From the NCBI GenBank assembly GCA_049298935.1, contig JBAQWN010000002.1, positions 1 to 46,495 on the forward strand: DNA of 46,495 nt, written 5' to 3'. This document shows, in pieces, positions 1-11,343 of this stretch. A program made the translations under genes and the position numbers. How positions within the stretch are numbered: the first letter of the stretch is position 1; each line of letters opens with the position of its first letter. This stretch comes from Minisyncoccia bacterium (GTDB lineage Bacteria > Patescibacteriota > Minisyncoccia > Phycocordibacterales > Phycocordibacteraceae). Below the pieces are notes generated by a model, which was not told where the DNA came from, did no database searches, and saw only the letters and a list, made by a program, of their open reading frames with translations.

Positions 1-2
1 CT

Positions 3-1232
3 TCATCAGTCGCAACCATTCCAACAGCACTCGCAACCTCAACTCTGTATGGCACAGCACCAGCAGGAGGATACGTTCTCGGATGGAACAATGCGACGAA
101 CGGCATCGGCTGGATTGCAACCTCCTCAACAGCTGGGGGAGGTATCACTACTCTTGGCGACTTCTACCACACAGGACTCACTGGTATCGCACAAACACTT
201 TCTACTTCAACAGCTGACACCAACCTCGGTATGACTATTGTCTCAAGCGGTACCGACCATCTCTTCACTCCATACTGGATCGGTCAGCTCAGTATTGCTC
301 GTGGCGGCACAGGCCTCTCCTCGGTCAGTGGTAATCAACTCCTCTATTCAAACTCAAATGGTACGGCTTTTGCCCAAGTATCTACTTCAACTCTTAGTAT
401 CGGTGGCAATGCCGCAACGGTAACCACTAACGCCAATCTTTCAGGTGTGATTACCAGCTCCGGCAACACCACATCCTATGCCGCCACCGCCGGTGCCAAC
501 ACGATTCTAGCAAATGCCACTGGTGGCCCTGCCGCACCAACCTTTGTCAGTACATCAACCCTCAACATTGGTGGCACCGCTTCTAATATCACCGGCATTG
601 TCGCGCTTCTAAACGGTGGCACAGGACTCTCTTCAATCACTGGCAATCGACTTCTCTATACCAACAGTGCTGGCACTGCCTTCGCTCAAGCAGCCACCTC
701 AACTCTCTATGGCACCGGTACTGGTGGTCAAATCCTCGCGTGGAACAACACTAACGCTGCTCCTACTTGGACCGCGACCACCACTATCCCCGTGGGCGGT
801 GGTGTCTCGGGTACTCTTTCGAACATTACAGTCGTCACTAACGCCAACCTTTCAGGTGTGGTCACCTCTTCTGGCAACACCACGTCGTTTGGTACACTCG
901 CACAAGGCATACTCGGCAATCCAGCGCTTACCGCAACTATTCCGACCGCTCTCGCTACTTCTACTCTTTACGGTCTTTCAACTGGCGGCATGGTGCTCGG
1001 GTGGAATAACGTCACTGGCGGTCTCGGCTTCGTGGCTACTTCATCTAGTAGCGGACTCTCGGCTATCGGTGCGAATATGGTTCTCGCTAACAACACCAGT
1101 GCGTCTGCCATCCCAACCGGTGTTTCCACGTCAACTATGTTTGGCCTTAGTACCGGCGGCAAAGTACTTGGTTGGGATAATACGACTGGCGGGATAGGAT
1201 GGGTCGCGACCTCGTCAGCCGCCGGTGGTGGA
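3..1232 (+). repeat. Degenerate tandem coding repeats (tail-fibre-like motifs) in the N-terminal part of the giant protein
   Basis: STLYG/STMFG-x4-GG-x-[VI]L[GA]W-[ND]N-x-[TN] motif, ending G-x-G-[WF]-[VI]-ATSS in three of the 4 copies (nt ~3-143, ~693-790 (divergent tail), ~931-1056, ~1104-1232). GGTGLSS-x-[ST]GN-x-LLY-x-NS-x-GTAFAQ occurs twice (nt ~297-400, ~613-705). TNANLSGV-x-TSSGNTTS occurs twice (nt 424-474 and 838-888) and is also similar at DNA level. Confidence 0.8.
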
Positions 1233-4200
1233 TACACCACGATTACTGATGATACAAACGGCAGTCTCACGCAAGTTTCAACGCTGGCTTTCCTCGGTAC
1301 CGGAATAAACTGTATAAACGGCACTGGGCAAACAGAATGTACAGTGAACGCTGGTGCGGCAACGGCGGCAGGAGCCACAGGCAATATTCAATTCAATACG
1401 GGGAACTCTCTTGACGCTGTTACCAACTTTACTTGGGATAAAACAAACAGTCGTCTCGGTGTTGGCAGTTCATCACCAATGGCGACGCTCACGGCATCAA
1501 GCACTTCGGCACTTATCGCCGCAGCGATCATTGATCAGCGAGGCACCGGCGCGCTCCTTTCTCTCCAGCAGGGCGGTCTCGATAAATTCACCGTGGCAAA
1601 TGGCGGAGGCCTCACTATATCCGCCGTGACTTCCGATACGGTGAAGTCGACGGCCGGGACAGGCAAGACTACTGACTTTGATTATCCAGGAGCCACGCTT
1701 GCTTCAACGACTGCAACATCCGACTATGTCACCATCAATGACGGCGCCGTTCCTGCAAATGGTGGAAGCATCGCGGCTTCTACCTCGCCGACTACAAACG
1801 TTGCTGTCGGTGCTGGCGGGCAAGTAATACTCCGTTCTGATGGGAAATACATAATTATACACGGCGGCGGATCAGCCACGGCTTCTCTCTGGAATGGTTT
1901 TGCTGGCGGTGCTATGTCGGCAACTCCTACTGCTCCAGCAACTGGTGGTACGGTGGGTGCCGGCGCAATTGCTATCAAGCGCCCTGATGGTAGATACATA
2001 GTCTTCCACGGTGGTGGCGCGAACCTCAGTACTGTCTTCGATCCGTATGGTATTACAGCAACCGTGGCAGGACCGGTACCGGGAGGTGCCTGTACAACCG
2101 GTACAAACGCATTTCTCCGTCAGAACGGTAACTATATCGTGCTCTGTGGAGGTACGACTGGATGGGGAGTGTATGACCCATCACGTCCGGCTCCGGGAGC
2201 TCTCGTCGCTGGTTCTGCGATCGGTGGTAACTGGGGCGCCGGTGCACACGCCGTGCAGAGAGACGACGGTACGTTCCTCGTCTATCAGGGCGGTGGCACG
2301 GGTACCTTCATCTATAATCCATACAACAACACGATGACTGCCGGTCCTGCGGCACCAACCGCGATTGCTGCAGGTTCGTTCTCCATCCGCCGACAAGACG
2401 GCATCTATCTAACGCTTCCTGGATCAGCCAATCAGTCTTTCCTCTATAGTCCGGTGAGTACCACGACACCAAACGGAACAGGAGGCTTTAGTGCGAACCT
2501 CGGTGTCGGTCCCTCCTCGGCTCTTGCCGATGGTGCACAATCGGTGTGGCGACAAGACGGCAAGTACATTCTCATCACTGCAAATACGACTGTGGTGAAT
2601 GTGATAGACCAAGGTGCTGGCATCCCAGGCGTCACTGCTGGCGCGCAGGCTCCGGTATTTAGCAACCCTGGCGCTCCGCTTGCACTCTCGGCCGCAGCGG
2701 GTGCCGGCATCACTGCCTTTATGCTTCCAAACGGCACCTCCGCAATTGTGCGTGGCGGCGGTACGGGCATTGATATAGTGGACACCAACTTTGTTACCGG
2801 GACAAATGGCGCGAATACACAAGACGCGTATTACGAAAGTGAGTGCATCGACAACACCAATCTCTCCCCCGACTCAACCATGAACTGGGTGAGTAATTCA
2901 GAAGGGAAGATTAGCGTGCAAGTGCGCACCGTAACGAACCCAACAGCCTGTTCGGCAGGAACATATAAAAGTATCGGTAATAGTGGAGACCTCATAGGCG
3001 CGGCGACTGCCAATAACCGCATCCAATTTAAGTTTACCTTCCAGCGCGAGTTACCGCGCTTTATGGATCAAGAATGGGGTGTCAGAAAGACAGGGCAGAC
3101 ACGCTATCGTCGTGTGAACGCCGACCCAACACTTTACAGCGTTGTCGTTGACAACGGTACCGCGCTCCATCGTACCCAGTTTGATTTCGGCAACGCTGTG
3201 TCGTCGACGACTGCCTTCGCGTCCGGTCCTGTTGCGGTCAATCTTACGAACGATACTAATCGTGCAAACGCACTCGCTCTTTCTGTAGGCCAGTCGGCAA
3301 CGATTAACCAAACGATGACTCAAGGAACAGGCCATCTCTATAACGGAACCTTCAACTCTCACAATGTACTCACCACTGGTACTGCGTCATCAACCGTGGT
3401 TATGAAGCGTCCCGATGGTAAATGGGTCGTGATTGCCGGTAATGCGACGCCGAATGCACAGGTCTATGACGAAACACTCCAGACGTTCACGGCGCTTGGT
3501 ACGACCCCAACTGCCGCACTTGGTACGGGCGGGTTCGCCTTTAAACGTCCCGACGGCAAGTACCTCATTGTCTTAGGAAATAAAACGACCACGACAAATA
3601 TCTACGACCCCGTCGCGAACACCTTCATCGCAGGACCTGTCCTCACTGCCGCTGCGTGGATTGGTGCACTCCAGATACCGCTGCCGATGGGTCGCGTGCT
3701 TATCGTCCACGGCAACCTCACGAATTCCACTTCTATATATGACCCGATACAAAATACGATGACCACAGGCCCTACCTCCGTGACGGTGGTCGGTCCCGGT
3801 TCGGTCGTCATACCGCGACCGGACGGCACCTTCCTCTTTGTCCCAGGTATGTCCGCATACCCGATATGTTCGGCCGTAGTCACCACAACGCAATTCTTCA
3901 ACCCGTATACAATGTTATTCACTGCGGCTGGCCCAACCAACACCGGCGGCACGGGCCCTGGCGCTTTCGCCTTCCAGCGCCAAGACGGTCAGTGGATTAT
4001 CGTGCGAGGCGGAGCAACAGCCAGCACCTGCGCGAGTGTCAAGGGAACCGGCGTGTATAACCCGTTTGATAACCAGATAACCACTACGGGTCCGACCATG
4101 GCGACCGCTCCCGGTCTTGGCGCACAGGTGTTGCCACGACCCGATGGCACTTGGCTCATGATTATCGGAGGTAGTGGTGGCCCTGGTGTTGCTCAAACAC

Positions 4201-6638
4201 AGACTTTCATCTATCAGGAAAAGGTCGGTGCGCTCACTGCTACTGGTCCTCAATCTACCCTCGGTCAATTTACCGTTAGTTCGACGACGATTACCGGTAT
4301 CAACAGCGGCTCAGTCTCCTTCCAGCGCTCCGACGGTAAGTTCGTCGTCATCACTGGTGCGGCCACCACCACCACTGGCACCGTGGTCCAGGTCTATGAC
4401 GCCGGTTGGGTACAGAGTGGTTCCTATAAGTCAGAACAATTTGACCTCTCCCCGGTAGGGACGAAGCTCGATGCCAACTCGACCCTTATATGGAAAGGGA
4501 ACATGTTCTCGACTGCTCTTGGTAGTATCTCAGCAGAAGTGAAGACCGCACCGACACAAGCTGCGCTCGCGACTACCTCTACTCGAACCATTCAGCTGTC
4601 AGGCTCGCTCATTAATCCCGCCGCCACCGATGCCTGGCTTCAGGTTGCATTCAACTTCCGCAGAGCATTCCCTTCATACGACGGTATCTATACCGATGTT
4701 TGGAATTCTGGTAGCGCGATGAGATTCGCGCAACGGCCAGTGTTGACACCAACTCTGTACGAATACAAGGTGACCAAGGATAAAGACCTCCTCGACCTCC
4801 AGTCGGATGGACTCTCAATACTGCGTGTTAGCACTTCAGGCGATGTCTTCACACAGGTGGGCGGGACGATTAACACAAGTGGTGCCGACTTGGCAGAGCG
4901 CTATACCTCTCAGGTCGAGTTGCAGAAGGGCTCGGTGGTCGCTATCGACCCACAGAACAATCACGGAGTGATGCCGTCGAAATACCAATACCAGTCAGAC
5001 ATTCTTGGTGTTGTTTCGACTGATCCAGGATTCGTCGCTGGTGCGTATACCGAAAACTCGTACCCAATCGCTCTCATCGGACGCGTGCCGGTGAACGTCT
5101 CGACTGAAAACGGTATGATCCGCACGGGCGACTACCTCACTGCCGCGAGTGTCCCAGGATATGCGATGAAGGCTGTGCTTTCTGGAAGGGTGATAGGTAA
5201 GGCACTTGAGTCGCTCGACGAGAGTAAGCTTATCGACTGCCCAGCAAGCGATATCTATATGCCAAACCGGAAGTGCGGCACGGTGATGGTCTTTGTTAAC
5301 CTTATCGACTACCAAGGTCAGTCGGTCGACCTCGCGATGAGCGATTGGAACGTGAAGCGGGCAAACATCGTTGCGGCTGGTCTCGCGACAGGGCTCGATA
5401 TCGCGACGTCAACTATGCCAGCAGACGCAGCAGCACAATTTACCTTCAGAGACACTCGCTCGTCCGACATCATGAACTTCCTTGAGAGCTTGAAGGCCGA
5501 GCGCGCGGTGGGAGTAACTTCGCAGTCTGAAATATTTGCCGACAAGATAAGTGCCGTGTCGCAAGTCATCAGTCCTGAGATTGTTGCTAACATTGTAAAT
5601 GCTAAAGAAGGACGTTTCGGTGCTGTTGATGGGCTAGCAATCTCTGCGGGGACGATAACGGCTGATAAGATCATCACTTCGTCGATAAGCTCTTCTGTAG
5701 GCGGATTCACGATGGATCTCTTGCCTGACGGTCGGCTCGTGATGCGCAGAGTCGCCACTGTTTCGATGGCTTCGACATCCTCGACAAGCTCGGAGCAGGC
5801 AAGCTCACCACAAGCAATCACGACAGATATCGCGACCTCGTCACTTCTCGCTTCGGTAGATAGTGCTTTCGCCACTTTGGCATCCTCGACAAGCTTGGAG
5901 CAGGCAACCACTACAGACATAGTGATCAGTTTCGACGCTACCGGCAACGCCTTCTTCGCGGGTGAAGTTGTCGCTCAGAAAGTCTCGACCGGCGCCCTCG
6001 ACGTCTCTGGTCTCGCGAAGTTTGCGGGTGGGCTCGAAGTCGCTTCGCTCGGTATCGCGAGCTCGACGATGGCAATCCTCAGCGACACTTCCTTCATCGG
6101 TCGGCCATATTTCACCTCTGACACAGGTGGCACTGCGACGATTAAAAAAGGTGCACGCTTGGTCGACGTTACATTTGCTAGAGAATATATAGAGACACCA
6201 ATCCTCACAGCATCAATGGTCTTCACTGCCTCGACGACCGATGAAAATATCGATCAGATCTTCTCAGATGATGTGCGCTATGTGGTGACCAAGAGAACAG
6301 CGACAGGATTCACCATATTCTTGAATAAGAAAGCGACGATTGACACGACCTTTAACTGGCTCGCCCTCGCGGTGAAAGATTCGAAGGAGTTTACCTCGCG
6401 CACTGTGCAAGCAGAGCCTGTTGCGCCTCCAGTGCCATTGTCTGACGTTGTTACAGTCTCGACGACAACTCCCATGACAGCATCAACGACTTTGGAAGTC
6501 CCGCTGTTGGATACTTCGACTACGACGCCAGAAGCGGCGACGACTACTCCTGTAACAATAATCTCACTGCCCGACACATCTCTTACGTCAGACGTGCTTC
6601 CTGTGGTTGACCAACTCACTCCACTTCCGCAGGTGTAA
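3..6638 (+). CDS. Giant surface/secreted protein, 5' end outside the window (>=2,211 aa visible). It has tail-fibre-like N-terminal repeats, two beta-propeller plus beta-sandwich modules, a Peptidase_G2-like autoprocessing motif and a Ser/Thr/Pro-rich tail.
   Basis: Frame 3 is open from nt 3, with no stop before the ORF-track ATG at 231. Nt 3-143 encode IPTALATSTLYG..GGYVLGWNNATNGIGWIATSS, the same motif seen at nt ~931-1056 and ~1104-1232, so 231 is an internal Met and the protein continues upstream. Stop TAA at 6636-6638. No TM segment in the visible part. Confidence 0.85.
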   Translation, partial: SSVATIPTALATSTLYGTAPAGGYVLGWNNATNGIGWIATSSTAGGGITTLGDFYHTGLTGIAQTLSTSTADTNLGMTIVSSGTDHLFTPYWIGQLSIARGGTGLSSVSGNQLLYSNSNGTAFAQVSTSTLSIGGNAATVTTNANLSGVITSSGNTTSYAATAGANTILANATGGPAAPTFVSTSTLNIGGTASNITGIVALLNGGTGLSSITGNRLLYTNSAGTAFAQAATSTLYGTGTGGQILAWNNTNAAPTWTATTTIPVGGGVSGTLSNITVVTNANLSGVVTSSGNTTSFGTLAQGILGNPALTATIPTALATSTLYGLSTGGMVLGWNNVTGGLGFVATSSSSGLSAIGANMVLANNTSASAIPTGVSTSTMFGLSTGGKVLGWDNTTGGIGWVATSSAAGGGYTTITDDTNGSLTQVSTLAFLGTGINCINGTGQTECTVNAGAATAAGATGNIQFNTGNSLDAVTNFTWDKTNSRLGVGSSSPMATLTASSTSALIAAAIIDQRGTGALLSLQQGGLDKFTVANGGGLTISAVTSDTVKSTAGTGKTTDFDYPGATLASTTATSDYVTINDGAVPANGGSIAASTSPTTNVAVGAGGQVILRSDGKYIIIHGGGSATASLWNGFAGGAMSATPTAPATGGTVGAGAIAIKRPDGRYIVFHGGGANLSTVFDPYGITATVAGPVPGGACTTGTNAFLRQNGNYIVLCGGTTGWGVYDPSRPAPGALVAGSAIGGNWGAGAHAVQRDDGTFLVYQGGGTGTFIYNPYNNTMTAGPAAPTAIAAGSFSIRRQDGIYLTLPGSANQSFLYSPVSTTTPNGTGGFSANLGVGPSSALADGAQSVWRQDGKYILITANTTVVNVIDQGAGIPGVTAGAQAPVFSNPGAPLALSAAAGAGITAFMLPNGTSAIVRGGGTGIDIVDTNFVTGTNGANTQDAYYESECIDNTNLSPDSTMNWVSNSEGKISVQVRTVTNPTACSAGTYKSIGNSGDLIGAATANNRIQFKFTFQRELPRFMDQEWGVRKTGQTRYRRVNADPTLYSVVVDNGTALHRTQFDFGNAVSSTTAFASGPVAVNLTNDTNRANALALSVGQSATINQTMTQGTGHLYNGTFNSHNVLTTGTASSTVVMKRPDGKWVVIAGNATPNAQVYDETLQTFTALGTTPTAALGTGGFAFKRPDGKYLIVLGNKTTTTNIYDPVANTFIAGPVLTAAAWIGALQIPLPMGRVLIVHGNLTNSTSIYDPIQNTMTTGPTSVTVVGPGSVVIPRPDGTFLFVPGMSAYPICSAVVTTTQFFNPYTMLFTAAGPTNTGGTGPGAFAFQRQDGQWIIVRGGATASTCASVKGTGVYNPFDNQITTTGPTMATAPGLGAQVLPRPDGTWLMIIGGSGGPGVAQTQTFIYQEKVGALTATGPQSTLGQFTVSSTTITGINSGSVSFQRSDGKFVVITGAATTTTGTVVQVYDAGWVQSGSYKSEQFDLSPVGTKLDANSTLIWKGNMFSTALGSISAEVKTAPTQAALATTSTRTIQLSGSLINPAATDAWLQVAFNFRRAFPSYDGIYTDVWNSGSAMRFAQRPVLTPTLYEYKVTKDKDLLDLQSDGLSILRVSTSGDVFTQVGGTINTSGADLAERYTSQVELQKGSVVAIDPQNNHGVMPSKYQYQSDILGVVSTDPGFVAGAYTENSYPIALIGRVPVNVSTENGMIRTGDYLTAASVPGYAMKAVLSGRVIGKALESLDESKLIDCPASDIYMPNRKCGTVMVFVNLIDYQGQSVDLAMSDWNVKRANIVAAGLATGLDIATSTMPADAAAQFTFRDTRSSDIMNFLESLKAERAVGVTSQSEIFADKISAVSQVISPEIVANIVNAKEGRFGAVDGLAISAGTITADKIITSSISSSVGGFTMDLLPDGRLVMRRVATVSMASTSSTSSEQASSPQAITTDIATSSLLASVDSAFATLASSTSLEQATTTDIVISFDATGNAFFAGEVVAQKVSTGALDVSGLAKFAGGLEVASLGIASSTMAILSDTSFIGRPYFTSDTGGTATIKKGARLVDVTFAREYIETPILTASMVFTASTTDENIDQIFSDDVRYVVTKRTATGFTIFLNKKATIDTTFNWLALAVKDSKEFTSRTVQAEPVAPPVPLSDVVTVSTTTPMTASTTLEVPLLDTSTTTPEAATTTPVTIISLPDTSLTSDVLPVVDQLTPLPQV
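1802..3360 (+). repeat. Supermodule 1: ~7 Kelch-like beta-propeller blades followed by a ~180-aa beta-sandwich-like domain
   Basis: Seven ~45-50-aa units each contain [KR]-[RQ]-x-[DN]G-x-[YFW]-[ILV]3-x-GG (RSDGKYIIIHGGG, KRPDGRYIVFHGGG, RQNGNYIVLCGG, QRDDGTFLVYQGGG, RRQDGIYLTLPG, WRQDGKYILITAN, LPNGTSAIVRGGG). They are followed by SECIDNTNLSPDSTMNWVS..NRIQFKFTFQRELP..PTLYSVVVD. Confidence 0.65.
3361..4790 (+). repeat. Supermodule 2: a second 7-blade propeller plus beta-sandwich-like domain, paralogous to supermodule 1
   Basis: Blades are KRPDGKWVVIAGN, KRPDGKYLIVLGN, PLPMGRVLIVHGN, PRPDGTFLFVPG, QRQDGQWIIVRGG, PRPDGTWLMIIGG and QRSDGKFVVITGA. They are followed by SEQFDLSPVGTKLDANSTLIWKG..AWLQVAFNFRRAFP..PTLYEYKVT, which parallels the end of supermodule 1. 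Confidence 0.65.
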
Positions 6639-6657: not shown

Positions 6658-7647
6658 ATGAGGGGGAAATTTGTTGCCAGTGGCGTACTCATTACTATTT
6701 TCTTATTAGGGTTTGCTTCTGACCGTTTATTTTTTCCCACGACAAGTGGGGACAACTGTGTATCAGACTTTACATTCATCAGACAGAATCTTGACTGCAA
6801 TCTTTCTGATAAAAAGATTCAAAACCTTGGAGTGCTCGAAGGGAAGATTAAAGAAGATATTCTTGGATACCAGGAGCAAGGGAAGGTGACTCGAGTAAGC
6901 GTGTTTGCGCGCGATATCTTGTCGAGCCGTTTCGTTGGCGTCAATGAAAATGAAATGTTCTACATGGCGAGCCTCTTGAAGATTCCGGTGCTTGTCGGTG
7001 GCTATAAGCTTGCCGAAGTTGAGCCGAGGCTTCTTGACCAAGAGATACTTTATACGGGAAAGCCGAACCTCTACGATGGGCAAAACATAAAACCAATAGA
7101 AGTGCTCGAAATGGGGAAGAGTTATACAGTACGAGAGCTTATGCGGCGAGCGGTGGTCTATTCTGATAATACGGCTGCACAGCTTCTCTACGATTACTAC
7201 CCAGTTGAATTTCTTGACCGTATTATGGAAGCACTCGGCCTCAGCTTTACCATGCCACAAGGAGTGGCAGAGAACTTCGTTACTGCACGTACTTATGCAA
7301 ATGTGTTCCGCTCACTCTACAATTCCTCCTATCTCACGAGAGAGTATTCAAACGAAGCGCTCTCGTTTTTGACCAAAACAACCTATAGCGACGGTGCGAC
7401 GGCGAAGCTCCCGAAAGATGTTCTTGTCGCGCATAAGTTTGCTGAACGAAGCACAACACTCCCATCTGCCCCTCAAAGACCACTCCGCCAGCTTCATGAA
7501 TGTGGTCTGGTATATGCGAAGAATGGCGCCGAGCCGTACACTTTTTGCATCCTGACCGAAGGCTCAGACTATGAAGCGTTGCAGAATGTCCTGCAAGACT
7601 TATCGCTCGAGATCTATACTGCGATGATCGACGACACTGGTAATTAG
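6658..7647 (+). CDS. Membrane-anchored serine hydrolase, class A beta-lactamase / PBP-like fold
   Basis: N-terminal hydrophobic anchor (FVASGVLITIFLLGFA). SxxK motif in FYMASLLKIPV. SDN loop YSDNTAAQLL closely resembles the class A SDNTAANLL. No clear KTG (HKFAE in that position) and no obvious ExxLN. Confidence 0.7.
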   Translation: MRGKFVASGVLITIFLLGFASDRLFFPTTSGDNCVSDFTFIRQNLDCNLSDKKIQNLGVLEGKIKEDILGYQEQGKVTRVSVFARDILSSRFVGVNENEMFYMASLLKIPVLVGGYKLAEVEPRLLDQEILYTGKPNLYDGQNIKPIEVLEMGKSYTVRELMRRAVVYSDNTAAQLLYDYYPVEFLDRIMEALGLSFTMPQGVAENFVTARTYANVFRSLYNSSYLTREYSNEALSFLTKTTYSDGATAKLPKDVLVAHKFAERSTTLPSAPQRPLRQLHECGLVYAKNGAEPYTFCILTEGSDYEALQNVLQDLSLEIYTAMIDDTGN

Positions 7648-7691: not shown

Positions 7692-8096
7692 ATGGAACAA
7701 GACGCAACACTGAAGAAATCATTTTCAAAATACATTACCGTTACAAACGTTCTGGCGGTGCTTCTTGTAATCTCTATTGGTACAGGTGTGTACTTCTATC
7801 AGAAGGCGACTGCTGATCCACAGAAGGAGGCGCTTAAGGAGTTGCAGGCTACGATTGTGAGTGTCGGCAAGCTGATGGTCCTACCAGCCGGCGAGACGCC
7901 GACGATGGCGACCGTGAGTGACCCAGAGAAGTTAAAAGACCAACCGTTCTTTATTCATGCCCAAAAGGGAGATAAGGTTTTGATATACACAGCATCACAA
8001 AAAGCGATTCTCTACAGCCCCTCATTGAATAAAATAGTAGAAGTAGCCCCGATCAATGCCGGCGCTACCGGAGGCTCAGCCAATGTCCCACTTTAG
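7692..8096 (+). CDS. Hypothetical membrane-anchored protein (single N-terminal TM)
   Basis: 134-aa ORF with TM segment VTNVLAVLLVISIGTGVYFY. TGGTATACT -10-like box at 7652-7660. No family recognised. Confidence 0.55.
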   Translation: MEQDATLKKSFSKYITVTNVLAVLLVISIGTGVYFYQKATADPQKEALKELQATIVSVGKLMVLPAGETPTMATVSDPEKLKDQPFFIHAQKGDKVLIYTASQKAILYSPSLNKIVEVAPINAGATGGSANVPL

Positions 8097-11000
8097 AAAA
8101 GCCGTTTTACTCAGTGTCCTTGTAGCAGGTCTTTTACCACTCTTTCCATCTCGCGCAGAGGCGGTTGTTTTGGACAAAAGTTCGTATATTGTCGGAGACT
8201 CAATCATTGCTCCTGATGGTACTGGCCCGGTTGTGCTTTATAATCTCGGTACTGGAGAAACATATTTTGAAACATGGGGATTTGATCCGGGTGGAAATAT
8301 TAATTATTTCGGAATTTCATCTGGTAATTTTTCCCTTATCGAACTTACCACTTCGGGGATATGTCAGGGGCAAGCGTTGACGTATGTTGACTGCAAGTTA
8401 GCTCCGGAGTTCGTAGGTGAAGCTTTGTTTAGTGTCACCGATCCTCCTTCTAGCGGCAGGGCGGCTGAGCCAGCAGACAGAATTGTGCCGGTGCCGATCG
8501 CGGCTATTCAGTCGCCACTGAGAGGCGATGTGTTCTCACTCTTTGGGATTATTAACTACACCACGCTGAGCGCAACAAAAGTTAATCTCTATTATTCCAC
8601 CAGTACGGCTAACTGGGACGGCAGTTTCTTTATTGATCCTGCCGATAAGATGTTGATCGCGAGTGGTGTGCCAGAAAATGGTCCGTATACATGGAATACA
8701 AAAGGTCTTGCCCCAGGGAACTTCTATCGATTTATCGTTGATGCTCTGGGGACCTATGGTCGTATGGGGGAAGCGATTTCCGGCTTCTTCTCACTCGACT
8801 TCACTCCGCCGACCTTTATTGTGAAGGCGAACCCGCCCGTGACGCGCGGTAGCGACGTCACGGTGAGTGTCGATGCATCGAAGAATTTGAAAGTACCTCC
8901 GACGGTGACCGTAACTCAGGCGAGTGGTGTGGCCACGTCTCTTGAGATGAAAGGGCAGGGCAGTCATTACGAAGGAACGTATGTTATCAGCAAAGGGCAT
9001 GACGGCGTTGCGACGATCTCAGTGTCGGGTAGTGACGTGGCAGGAAATGTCGGGACGACGATACTCTCTGGCGGCACATTTGCGGTCGGTATTAACCCTC
9101 CACCTGTCCCGCATATTTCGTCGCCACAAAATAATACAGTGGTCGCGACTAGCACAATCGCAGTCACGGGTACGGTGCGTCCAGACACCATGGCGGTACT
9201 TGTGGTGAATGGTGTTGATACCTATACCGCGAGCTCGAGTTTGGACGGCACCTTTCATATTTCGGGCATCGTGTTGAGTAAAGATGCAAATAGGGGAGCG
9301 AACGTCTTTAGTATCGCGGCACGTGACCAGGCAGGGCTCATGAGCGAGGCGGTGCCGTTACAAATTAAATATAATATCGCACCGACCGTCGCCATTTCTT
9401 CTCCGGCAGACAAAGCGATCGTGGGCGCAACAACACTGCTTACGGTACAAGCAAAAGATGAAAATACCGACCCTCTCTTGTTTACCTATCAAATAATTCC
9501 AGCACAAAGTTTTGACGAGGCATCAGCCGCAACCACCTCATCAAGCACTGTCAAACACTCGGTGTTTGACAGTGCTTGGAATACTATCGGAGACGCGGTG
9601 CCGTCTGCGAATTTTTCATGGGACTCGACTGAGGTTGAGGATGGGCAATATTTCTTACGTGCCATAGCAGACGATGGTTTTGTGAAGGTGTATTCGACAC
9701 CAACTCCATTTTCAATCCACAACACCATTTCGTTCTTCCGTTTTGAAGATGGTAGAAAGACGGTGACGAATCGGTTGTCCGCGACTATCGTCGGACACGC
9801 CCTTTCACCGGTTACGATCTCACCGCGCCCGGCGATTGTCTCTGTCGAATATAGCCTCAATAATGGTGTGAAGTGGAGCCCAGTTTCAATAACGTCTGGA
9901 GAAGGCAGTGCTAACGTGACATTCTCACTCGCCCTCACGAAGCTTGCTGAAGGAACACAAAATATCGTGTGGCGGGTTAAAGATAGTCGAGGTCTCTACG
10001 GTCGCGCGAGTCATCCGGTCATTGTCGATCTGACACCACCCGCCGTGCCAATAGTGAATAGTCCTGCGAATAATGCCTTTATCACAAATGCAGATGATGA
10101 AGACGCTTCACAAAGCGGATTGCAGATAAGTGTTACGGGAACGGCAGAGCCGCAGAGTATGGTCACGTTGCAGTCAGCGAGTACGACCCTGACAGCGCGG
10201 GCATCTATAGATGGTGTGTTTACGTTCCGTGCTGTTGATATGCAGCGTGGGACAAATCAGTTCACGGTAACTGCAAAAGACGAGGCGGGGAACGCGAGTG
10301 TGTCGCGGATAGTGCGTGTCGTATATGACAATCCTCCGACGGTGACTATTCTCACGCCGAAGCCGTTCCGTGGGCTCACGGGGAAAGCGAGTGTCTCATG
10401 GAGTGTAAGTGATATCGACGGTGACAAGATACAGCAGGTTAGACTCGAATATCGTCGCGGCTCAGGAGCGTTCATCCCTCTCGACCTTGTCAAACACTCG
10501 GTGTTGGACACCCCGCACATTTTTGATGTGAGGGATTTTCCCGAAGCGGCTGATTATCAACTGCGACTCTCGGCAGGTGACGGTATAGCGACGGGCACGG
10601 ATCTGGTGAGTTTTTCGGTCGATCGAACTCCACCAACCCTTTCTTCTTTTACTCTCGACACGTCGGTGGTTGGGAAGGGTGGTACGCTCACCGGACATGG
10701 CAAAGCGTATGACGCACTCTCGGGTATTGAATATGTCGAATACGCAATTGCTGAGGGTGCGCCGTCGACATTCTCCACCGCGCTCCTCACGAATGGTTTC
10801 TTGCAGAATAACGCCACATTTTCGCTCGCTCATCCGACAACGCTCATAGACAGTACCTATACTGTGTATGCTCGCGCGGTCGATGCCGCTGGGAATGTAT
10901 CGCCCCAAGCGTCGCGCACTGTCCTCGTCGATATGGCACCACCATCAATCGGCAGTTTCGACGTGCTTGTGCAGGGTGCGCGTGTCAGTCCAGACGAACA

Positions 11001-11343
11001 GGGCGTGATCGCACTTTATACGGGCGCACAATCATTGTTTGAAGTATCGCTTGAAGGAGATACGAAAACAGCATCGCTCTTTGTTGGTAGTACAGCTATC
11101 CCATTGAAGAAAGATATCGCTTCAGGATTGTGGCAGGTAGCGATTGACGTAGGTACTGCAGGAACGACAACACTAGCTATCAGTGCCGAAGACAATGTGC
11201 ACAATGCCGTCACGGGGAAACTCATTGGAGCGTTACATATCACTGATCGCCCGAGTGATGCGCCAGCACAGCCTTCGACAGGTGGAACAAGTGGTGTGTG
11301 GAAGTTTCTACAAGGTATTATCAATTATATCCTCTCGCTATGA
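8083..11343 (+). CDS. Large secreted Ig-like-domain repeat protein (1,086 aa)
   Basis: Start chosen at ATG 8083 because GGAGG (8070-8074) lies 8 nt upstream and the product then begins with a signal peptide (MSHFRKAVLLSVLVAGLLPLFPSRAEA). Domain-boundary motifs D-x-[TA]PP recur (DFTPPTF, DLTPPAVP, DRTPPTL, DMAPPSI), as do D-x-AGN motifs (DVAGNVG, DEAGNAS, DAAGNVS), both typical of bacterial Ig-like arrays. Confidence 0.75.
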   Translation: MSHFRKAVLLSVLVAGLLPLFPSRAEAVVLDKSSYIVGDSIIAPDGTGPVVLYNLGTGETYFETWGFDPGGNINYFGISSGNFSLIELTTSGICQGQALTYVDCKLAPEFVGEALFSVTDPPSSGRAAEPADRIVPVPIAAIQSPLRGDVFSLFGIINYTTLSATKVNLYYSTSTANWDGSFFIDPADKMLIASGVPENGPYTWNTKGLAPGNFYRFIVDALGTYGRMGEAISGFFSLDFTPPTFIVKANPPVTRGSDVTVSVDASKNLKVPPTVTVTQASGVATSLEMKGQGSHYEGTYVISKGHDGVATISVSGSDVAGNVGTTILSGGTFAVGINPPPVPHISSPQNNTVVATSTIAVTGTVRPDTMAVLVVNGVDTYTASSSLDGTFHISGIVLSKDANRGANVFSIAARDQAGLMSEAVPLQIKYNIAPTVAISSPADKAIVGATTLLTVQAKDENTDPLLFTYQIIPAQSFDEASAATTSSSTVKHSVFDSAWNTIGDAVPSANFSWDSTEVEDGQYFLRAIADDGFVKVYSTPTPFSIHNTISFFRFEDGRKTVTNRLSATIVGHALSPVTISPRPAIVSVEYSLNNGVKWSPVSITSGEGSANVTFSLALTKLAEGTQNIVWRVKDSRGLYGRASHPVIVDLTPPAVPIVNSPANNAFITNADDEDASQSGLQISVTGTAEPQSMVTLQSASTTLTARASIDGVFTFRAVDMQRGTNQFTVTAKDEAGNASVSRIVRVVYDNPPTVTILTPKPFRGLTGKASVSWSVSDIDGDKIQQVRLEYRRGSGAFIPLDLVKHSVLDTPHIFDVRDFPEAADYQLRLSAGDGIATGTDLVSFSVDRTPPTLSSFTLDTSVVGKGGTLTGHGKAYDALSGIEYVEYAIAEGAPSTFSTALLTNGFLQNNATFSLAHPTTLIDSTYTVYARAVDAAGNVSPQASRTVLVDMAPPSIGSFDVLVQGARVSPDEQGVIALYTGAQSLFEVSLEGDTKTASLFVGSTAIPLKKDIASGLWQVAIDVGTAGTTTLAISAEDNVHNAVTGKLIGALHITDRPSDAPAQPSTGGTSGVWKFLQGIINYILSL

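Follow-up and report, generated by a model that had tools for sequence, protein, structure and literature searches.

A candidate giant surface fibre in a Minisyncoccia bacterium, with two propeller-sandwich heads and a C-terminal cassette distantly related to phi29 gp12

Little is known of how the ultrasmall bacteria of the Candidate Phyla Radiation (CPR, Patescibacteria) recognise and hold their hosts, and the majority have yet to be cultured. A gene that bears on this question, P0001, lies at the start of contig JBAQWN010000002.1 of a Minisyncoccia bacterium (assembly GCA_049298935.1) and codes for more than 2,000 amino acids (aa) of a giant, 5'-open protein; the window analysed is the whole contig, 46,495 nucleotides (nt). 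In Bdellovibrio bacteriovorus, mosaic adhesive trimer (MAT) fibres are encoded by the cell and serve partner recognition by a bacterium living on bacteria, and members of the MAT superfamily carry a conserved β-rich domain of ~130 aa directly after the signal peptide (Caulton et al. 2024, PMC10769870). The giant surface proteins of Vampirococcus lugosii, with their WD40, PKD, integrin and fibronectin domains, have been proposed to act in host recognition and attachment (Moreira et al. 2021, PMC8080830). On the viral side, domain D4 of phi29 gp12 shares the β-tulip fold with phage decoration proteins, and has also been likened to a protein of PBCV-1 and to certain bacterial adhesins (Stone et al., bioRxiv 10.1101/216911). 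Fibres that are encoded by cells and consist of phage parts are already known, as are giant CPR surface proteins in general; a search of the literature found no paper on the architecture of P0001 or on its partner genes.

On balance, at slightly better than an even chance, P0001 represents most of a giant secreted or membrane-anchored CPR surface fibre, probably a homotrimeric mosaic adhesin. Two propeller-sandwich heads would be its ligand-binding parts, contacting the host cell or another surface through glycan or protein, and a gp12-like cassette at the C-terminal end would nucleate and check trimer assembly. The cassette would then cut itself off between A1628 and D1629, a step proposed by analogy with gp12 and held more tentatively, at somewhat below an even chance. 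Two partner proteins encoded directly downstream, P0199 and P0200, would help mount the fibre in the cell wall or pass it through. Attachment to a host cell is probable by analogy, and fits what has been proposed for giant CPR surface proteins and MAT fibres. The locus is therefore a concrete candidate for such a function: a fibre with defined putative binding heads, an assembly module that appears phage-derived and a predicted cleavage site (A1628/D1629), accompanied by two conserved genes that could explain how it is mounted in the wall.

Architecture of P0001

The domain that follows the second head (Table 1) contains the sequence GADLAERY at aa 1627. Alignment of the domain profile with hhalign places SGADLAERY..LGVVSTDPGFVAG on gp12 residues 689-740 (TWSDFAEYFE..IGVISETAGFVLG), across the S691/D692 cleavage site, with a P value of 7e-4; the aligned motifs read GADLAERY..GVVS..PGFVAG. 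Across 22 diverse sequences, D1629, A1631 and E1632 do not vary. A monomer model of aa 1560-2150 is poor overall, with a predicted local distance difference test score (pLDDT) of 60.8, but confident at aa ~1630-1770 (pLDDT 77-90). Its top fold matches among the predicted viral structures of BFVD are labelled 'pre-neck appendage protein' (E 3.5e-10), followed by proteins of Agrobacterium phage Atu_ph07, an Mtd-N-domain protein and giant algal virus proteins. In the PDB, Foldseek returns phage capsid decoration or cement proteins (Sf11 9ocb_K, E 6e-4, target TM 0.59; Borrelia BB1; TW1), and the gp12 precursor structure itself is not among the top 50 matches; the tie between decoration proteins and gp12 D4 is drawn from the literature (Stone et al.).

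The same domain turns out to be widespread. A profile search of 1.84 billion representatives found 29,911 proteins or clusters carrying a G2-like domain at E<=1e-3, and in the 150 best of these the D-x-A-E motif is kept in 285 of 300 domain copies. Ten short family members were scanned: P0088 matches Pfam Peptidase_G2 at 37 bits (cut-off 25), P0114 does so weakly at 19 bits, and others give weak Phage_cement_2 and K1-lyase_C matches. The domain also shows direct sequence similarity (E 4e-9 to 2e-8) to a protein of PA5oct-like Pseudomonas jumbo phages annotated as 'baseplate wedge subunit and tail pin', over the last ~140 aa of that protein, and the gene for it adjoins a T4 gp10-like gene. Together, the hhalign alignment, the invariant residues, the BFVD and PDB matches and the family profile tie the domain to gp12 D4 and support placing aa 1616-1784 on a distant branch of the gp12-D4 family, though not as a member by Pfam definition. 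A Peptidase_G2-like motif had been called here in the initial annotation; its relation to gp12 D4 holds at the level of profile and fold, and the Pfam model itself does not recognise it. Since Pfam models mostly miss this family of ~30,000 clusters, a clear domain description would improve the annotation of thousands of giant 'hypothetical' proteins. The domain is present in 52 of 150 sampled genomes of the class, and has also been seen outside the CPR, in metagenome-assembled genomes (MAGs) labelled Solirubrobacterales, Planctomycetota, Chloroflexia, Nitrospirae and an archaeon.

Downstream of the G2-like domain, a linker modelled at low confidence leads to a last folded domain, a small β-sandwich that in its model resembles H-type lectins and the C-terminal domains of tailspikes. 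These Foldseek matches are shorter (~85-105 columns) and are assigned to aa 2027-2133 by their length, as they come without query coordinates. They include the H-type lectins SLL-2, Helix pomatia agglutinin and discoidin II (3wmp, E 7e-3; 2ccv, E 1.4e-2; BFVD 'H-type lectin domain' models, ~1e-3), the C-terminal domains of the Pam1 and Sf6 tailspikes, the R2 pyocin fibre and K1 lyase, with BFVD 'tail fiber' proteins also among the fold matches. Pfam H_lectin (PF09458) does not match P0001. The protein ends in a Thr/Pro-rich tail that has no LPXTG/sortase motif and no membrane segment; this tail and the small β domain before it lie where they had been expected from the sequence. A kinship with the similar-looking domain of a Peptidase_S74 fibre on another contig of the genome (C24) was considered and dropped, as the profile match is not significant (E 2-7).

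The two heads are each formed by a seven-bladed Kelch-like propeller and a β-sandwich. Blade motifs fall at aa 610, 659, 705, 752, 796, 849 and 907 in the first propeller and at aa 1134, 1181, 1226, 1271, 1325, 1378 and 1441 in the second, and the monomer model that covers aa 401-1600, for which 31 sequences were used, reaches a mean pLDDT of 75.8; the two propeller-plus-sandwich modules of the initial annotation are thereby confirmed. Aligned with each other, the heads share 27-32% identity (E 2e-17) and are, by this measure, paralogous. The head model matches BT4663, a Bacteroides double-propeller glycan sensor (E 2e-14), galactose oxidase and GlxA (E ~1e-12) and Kelch domains, which are not phage folds, so that the heads no longer count among the phage-like parts of the protein. 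Identity to galactose oxidase-type structures is 9-12%. The invariant columns of 31 homologues include no conserved His, Cys or Tyr of the copper set (Tyr-Cys cross-link, two His, Tyr); the residues that are conserved (Gly, Pro, Asp, Arg, Trp and Tyr) belong to the blade scaffold. Given the lack of a conserved copper-ligand set, the heads are read as binding modules and not as enzymes. Weak Pfam matches to DUF642 and Glyco_hydro_30C fall on blades of propeller 2 and are regarded as spurious.

The N-terminal part is the most variable. Within aa 1-400 the unit IPTALATSTLYG..GG.VLGWNN occurs four times, GGTGLSS..LLY twice and NANLSGV.TSSGNTTS twice. Among 47 database relatives compared, only one to four cover this region. 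Where the core begins (aa ~400), the number of homologous sequences climbs from 4 to 31, and model confidence is low there (pLDDT <50 for most of aa 401-594). From there to aa ~2150 the core is collinear in 31 CPR proteins of 1,500-3,650 aa, all 'hypothetical', and all close homologues of P0001 come from CPR/Patescibacteria. The repeats themselves have seven relatives in all, two with Peptidase_S74 and one with an N-terminal HTH_17. They had been described, together with the GNIQFNTG block, as being in the style of phage tail fibres. This description found no support: aa 1-600 gave no significant PHROG match to phage fibres and no PDB match at E<=10, tblastn of the N-terminal 466 aa against 50,697 phage records gave no match, and the GNIQFNTG block has no detectable phage, PHROG or PDB relative. 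It is their association with Peptidase_S74 proteins, and only this, that supports calling the repeats 'fibre'. Searches of the whole protein and eight segments with Pfam, NCBIfam and PHROGs returned nothing significant except PHROG 22593, of unknown function, and neither the N-terminal nor the C-terminal part matched anything when searched by sequence against the PDB. The idea of a protein assembled from phage parts is accordingly confined to the C-terminal third, with its gp12-D4-like and lectin/tailspike-like domains, and does not extend to the repeats or the heads.

Table 1. Features of the fibre gene and of the two genes downstream, in window coordinates
Feature	Residues (aa)	Window	Strand	Basis or remark
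Giant surface fibre open reading frame P0001	1-2211	3..6638	+	5'-open, 2,211 aa; stop codon 6636-6638
Variable mosaic fibre repeats	1-400	3..1202	+	repeat comparison within protein
Start of conserved core, with GNIQFNTG (aa 460) and GVGSSSP (aa 486)	401-594	1203..1784	+	homologue coverage
Propeller 1, seven-bladed, Kelch-like	~595-935	1785..2807	+	fold model, Foldseek, blade motifs
β-sandwich 1	~940-1065	2820..3197	+	fold model, motif scan
Propeller 2, seven-bladed, Kelch-like	~1120-1465	3360..4397	+	fold model, Foldseek, blade motifs
β-sandwich 2	~1472-1595	4416..4787	+	fold model, motif scan
gp12-D4/Peptidase_G2-like domain, putative β-tulip	1616-1784	4848..5354	+	profile and fold comparison; sole copy in the genome
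D1629-L-A1631-E1632 motif	1629-1632	4887..4898	+	aligns on phi29 gp12 S691/D692-F-A-E695
Linker	1785-2026	5355..6080	+	model, low confidence: two predicted helices, short β segments, Ser/Thr-rich stretches
C-terminal β-sandwich	2027-2133	6081..6401	+	model pLDDT 85-92 (aa ~2040-2130); Foldseek
Thr/Pro-rich tail	2134-2211	6402..6635	+	sequence
P0199, membrane-anchored class-A β-lactamase/PBP-A-like protein		6658..7647	+	S-L-L-K and S-D-N motifs; start 19 nt past fibre stop
P0200, small membrane-anchored protein	134 aa in all	7692..8096	+	no known family

The partner genes and the missing start

The fibre gene belongs to a conserved three-gene unit with P0199 and P0200. Of 26 related loci for which downstream sequence is available, 17 have a P0199-type gene downstream of the fibre, and 25 have a P0200-type gene there in the same orientation as the fibre. 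No relative of P0200 turned up in the PDB or Pfam, and its family comprises at least 713 clusters, all without annotation. It occurs in 15 of 150 genomes of the class, 10 of which also carry the G2-like domain (vs 52/150 overall), a moderate co-occurrence; in 6 of those 10 genomes the two genes lie near each other on the same strand, 0.7-6.5 kb apart. Across relatives, the C-terminal cassette and the two downstream genes are conserved and the middle 'head' modules are swappable, as in G029, of the same order: its 2,388-aa fibre has a different middle, made of collagen runs and another globular region, and keeps both the C-terminal cassette of P0001 and the two partner genes. Because the cassette is constant while heads and shaft vary, it is read as an assembly device, as in gp12. 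G029, as well as G017 and G023, lacks the propeller core and yet has the small-protein and PBP-like genes in two or three copies, which suggests that each copy serves a different giant fibre.

No phage families are found among the Pfam matches of 20 downstream open reading frames in the window, in line with the initial annotation, which saw no other phage genes nearby; the genes that could be identified have envelope, signalling, tRNA-synthetase and cell-division roles, and cohesin or dockerin genes were not found among them. By its sequence context, then, the fibre gene sits in the chromosome and outside any prophage. The neighbours had been summed up as envelope proteins, which fits these cellular and envelope genes and overlooks that the next two are conserved partners of the fibre. 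After the trio comes a 1,095-aa protein (window 8056-11343, + strand) with Big_13, Big_6 and Glucodextran_B-type immunoglobulin (Ig)-like domains; among the related loci it is found only in L010, so it probably lies outside the conserved unit. L010 (JAHFMR010000005.1, a 46,350-bp contig of the groundwater MAG nzgw461) is syntenic with the window, with identities of 60% for the fibre, 58% for the PBP-like protein, 62% for the small protein, 46% for the Big-domain protein and 45% for an AhpC-like protein.

P0001 is a single uninterrupted frame of 2,211 codons with no internal stop, and the expectation of a 5'-truncated giant protein whose N-terminus lies beyond the window is borne out. The window is the entire contig C2 of an assembly of 634 kb in 65 contigs (97.6% complete), as is usual for metagenome bins of CPR/Patescibacteria, and the frame begins at its first bases, so the truncation is an assembly break. 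Assemblies seem to break in these repeats repeatedly, since the fibre gene of L010 also runs off its contig end. Whether nt 3-230, before the first ATG, belong to the protein had been in doubt. They are coding: residues 6-40 are a repeat unit, IPTALATSTLYG..GG.VLGWNN..GW.ATSS, that recurs at aa 313 and aa 370, and part of the CPR fibre P0045 is 78% identical to this stretch. Thr, Gly, Ala and Ser make up 47% of P0001, which has 10 Cys. The G+C content of the fibre gene is 0.54-0.55 (window 1-6000), against 0.43-0.52 over most of the window, with negative GC skew; this offset may reflect the Gly/Ala/Thr-rich composition or a foreign origin.

The true N-terminus is on another contig, for which there are three candidates. 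Three contigs end in open frames with like repeats: C7 (880 aa; helix-turn-helix (HTH) and membrane segment), C22 (658 aa; HTH_17 and membrane segment) and C58 (443 aa; signal peptide and 'FQGRL' domain). Two contigs begin with open C-terminal pieces, C2 and C24. The start of C2 has no exact overlap with the contig ends, only repeat matches of 25-40 nt to those of C7, C22 and C58. A signal peptide and an FQGRL-type domain stand at the start of five of six complete relatives (L031, P0014, L029, L032 and L034), and the C58 fragment is 73% identical to the start of L031 and 53% to that of P0014. The sixth, P0016, begins with an HTH and a membrane segment joined to a P0001-type core. On sequence grounds C58 is the favoured start of P0001, at about an even chance. 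Export of the fibre is supported by the complete relatives, which start with either a signal peptide or an HTH and membrane segment.

The genes on C7 (5691-8332, + strand; L006:692-3331) and C22 (3-1976, - strand; L007) are 3'-open and encode an HTH (HTH_17/AbiEi-like, weak Pfam scores), a membrane segment and fibre repeats; this adds up to a DNA-binding domain in the cytoplasm with a giant fibre attached to it outside the cell, and P0016 and P0047 start alike. The piece on C24 (10095-12752, - strand; L009:596-3253) is 5'-open, 885 aa long, and holds two internal Peptidase_S74 domains, a small β domain and two Bact_surface_Ig-like domains. From this domain order, the S74 chaperone is also internal in this genome and not terminal as in phage fibres and MATs.

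Assembly, cleavage and competing readings

The proposed trimer is deduced from several sides: collagen G-x-y runs are present in homologue P0016 and in the giant protein of G029, modules of the β-tulip, S74, H-lectin and tailspike-end types are trimeric in known cases, and the same N-terminal repeats occur in Peptidase_S74 fibres. For cleavage between A1628 and D1629 speaks the invariant D-x-A-E. A number of observations weigh against the reading of P0001 as a trimeric, self-processing adhesin. Pfam Peptidase_G2 (PF11962) has no match at E<=10 in the whole protein, its segments or the whole genome, and hhalign of the domain profile against the single gp12 sequence aligns 50 columns only, at 26% probability. 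The motif-bearing domain is internal, with 583 aa downstream of the motif, and the 150 best representatives of the family mostly have two or three copies in tandem, each with the motif in 147 of them; both points count against cleavage and fit a retained structural clamp at least equally well. Monomeric, in-line propellers are unusual in trimeric fibres, and the structure models are of monomers only. The N-terminus is missing. Finally, a search of 30 related genomes, 18 from the same genus, did not find the propeller core, so the gene is accessory and patchily distributed, not essential to the lineage.

Could the cassette simply be kept? In the most serious alternative, which is unlikely without being far-fetched, P0001 is the same surface fibre with its C-terminal end retained: the G2-like domain would be a trimer clamp only, and the lectin-like domain and Thr/Pro tail would be the working end, binding a host glycan or tying the fibre to the cell's own wall with the PBP-like and small membrane proteins. 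The internal and often tandem position of the domain, the H-type lectin matches of the last domain and the envelope nature of the partner genes all agree with this, as does the SH3_3 domain in which homologue P0016 ends. SH3_3-type domains often bind peptidoglycan. Yet the family is constant at its C-terminal end, whereas receptor-binding tips are usually variable, and D-x-A-E is invariant at the exact position of gp12 cleavage. A different alternative concerns the other end of the protein. Of the three candidate N-terminal fragments, two open with an HTH and membrane segment, and P0016 joins such a start to the same core, so P0001 could be the outer part of a one-protein transmembrane signalling device in which contact outside alters gene expression. 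This is improbable: five of the six complete relatives start with a signal peptide, no mechanism for passing the signal is evident, and a cleavage-type domain would sit outside the cell. Slightly less probable again is the specific version in which a C7/C22-type start makes P0001 a contact sensor that relays host binding or pulling to transcription. If true, it would mean that a DNA-binding domain in the cytoplasm is connected across the membrane to an extracellular fibre of >2,000 aa. In eukaryotes, MYRF, a membrane-bound transcription factor with a phage-type chaperone domain, offers a loose parallel.

Two further readings carry little weight. That the propellers are catalytic and P0001 an extracellular enzyme, galactose-oxidase-like or glycan-degrading, would accord with the fold matches to galactose oxidase and GlxA; the low identity, the conservation of blade scaffold instead of copper ligands and the lack of any Pfam enzyme family match make it very doubtful. 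Least probable of all is a tail fibre of a chromosomal prophage, tailocin or contractile injection system, for which the phage-like C-terminal parts are the argument. No phage genes lie within 46 kb, the flanking cellular genes are conserved with the fibre (25/26 loci), and complete relatives have a Sec signal peptide or membrane anchor. P0001 is also 5-10 times longer than typical tail fibres.

Comparison with described systems

Like the MATs of Bdellovibrio, P0001 is a probable cell-encoded surface fibre that combines phage-tail-fibre-like parts with a chaperone-type module. The module differs, being Peptidase_S74 or absent in MATs and G2-like in P0001, and so does the layout: in MATs the N-terminal domain is constant and the C-terminal tips vary, whereas the P0001 family has a constant C-terminal cassette and a variable N-terminal region and middle. 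MATs also lack propellers and belong to a different phylum. P0001 resembles the proteins of Vampirococcus lugosii in its great length and predicted membrane or surface location, and in being encoded by a reduced CPR genome, but neither a G2-like cassette, nor a double propeller-sandwich core, nor the partner genes are described in the paper on that organism.

With gp12 D4 the G2-like domain shares the D-x-A-E at its start, on S691/D692..E695, and a position downstream of the putative working parts of the fibre or spike, and its fold matches are suggestive of the β-tulip type. The residue before the Asp is Ala here and Ser in gp12; gp12 has tandem tulips where P0001 has one copy; and in P0001 the residues after the motif include another folded domain. 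In addition, gp12 is viral and is cleaved, while P0001 is cellular and its cleavage only predicted. The heads follow the plan of galactose oxidase, GlxA and the ectodomains of BT4663-type Bacteroides hybrid two-component sensors, a seven-bladed Kelch-like propeller and then a β-sandwich, and the BT4663-type sensors share the double-propeller arrangement as well. They depart from these proteins in their distant sequences, without the copper ligand set and without a kinase or enzyme context, and in being embedded in a fibre. The last domain, finally, is like H-type lectins and the C-terminal domains of Sf6, Pam1, R2 pyocin and K1 lyase in being a β-sandwich of ~90-105 residues at the far end of a putatively trimeric protein, and unlike them in that the match is one of fold (E 7e-3 to 0.1) and is not seen by the Pfam lectin model.

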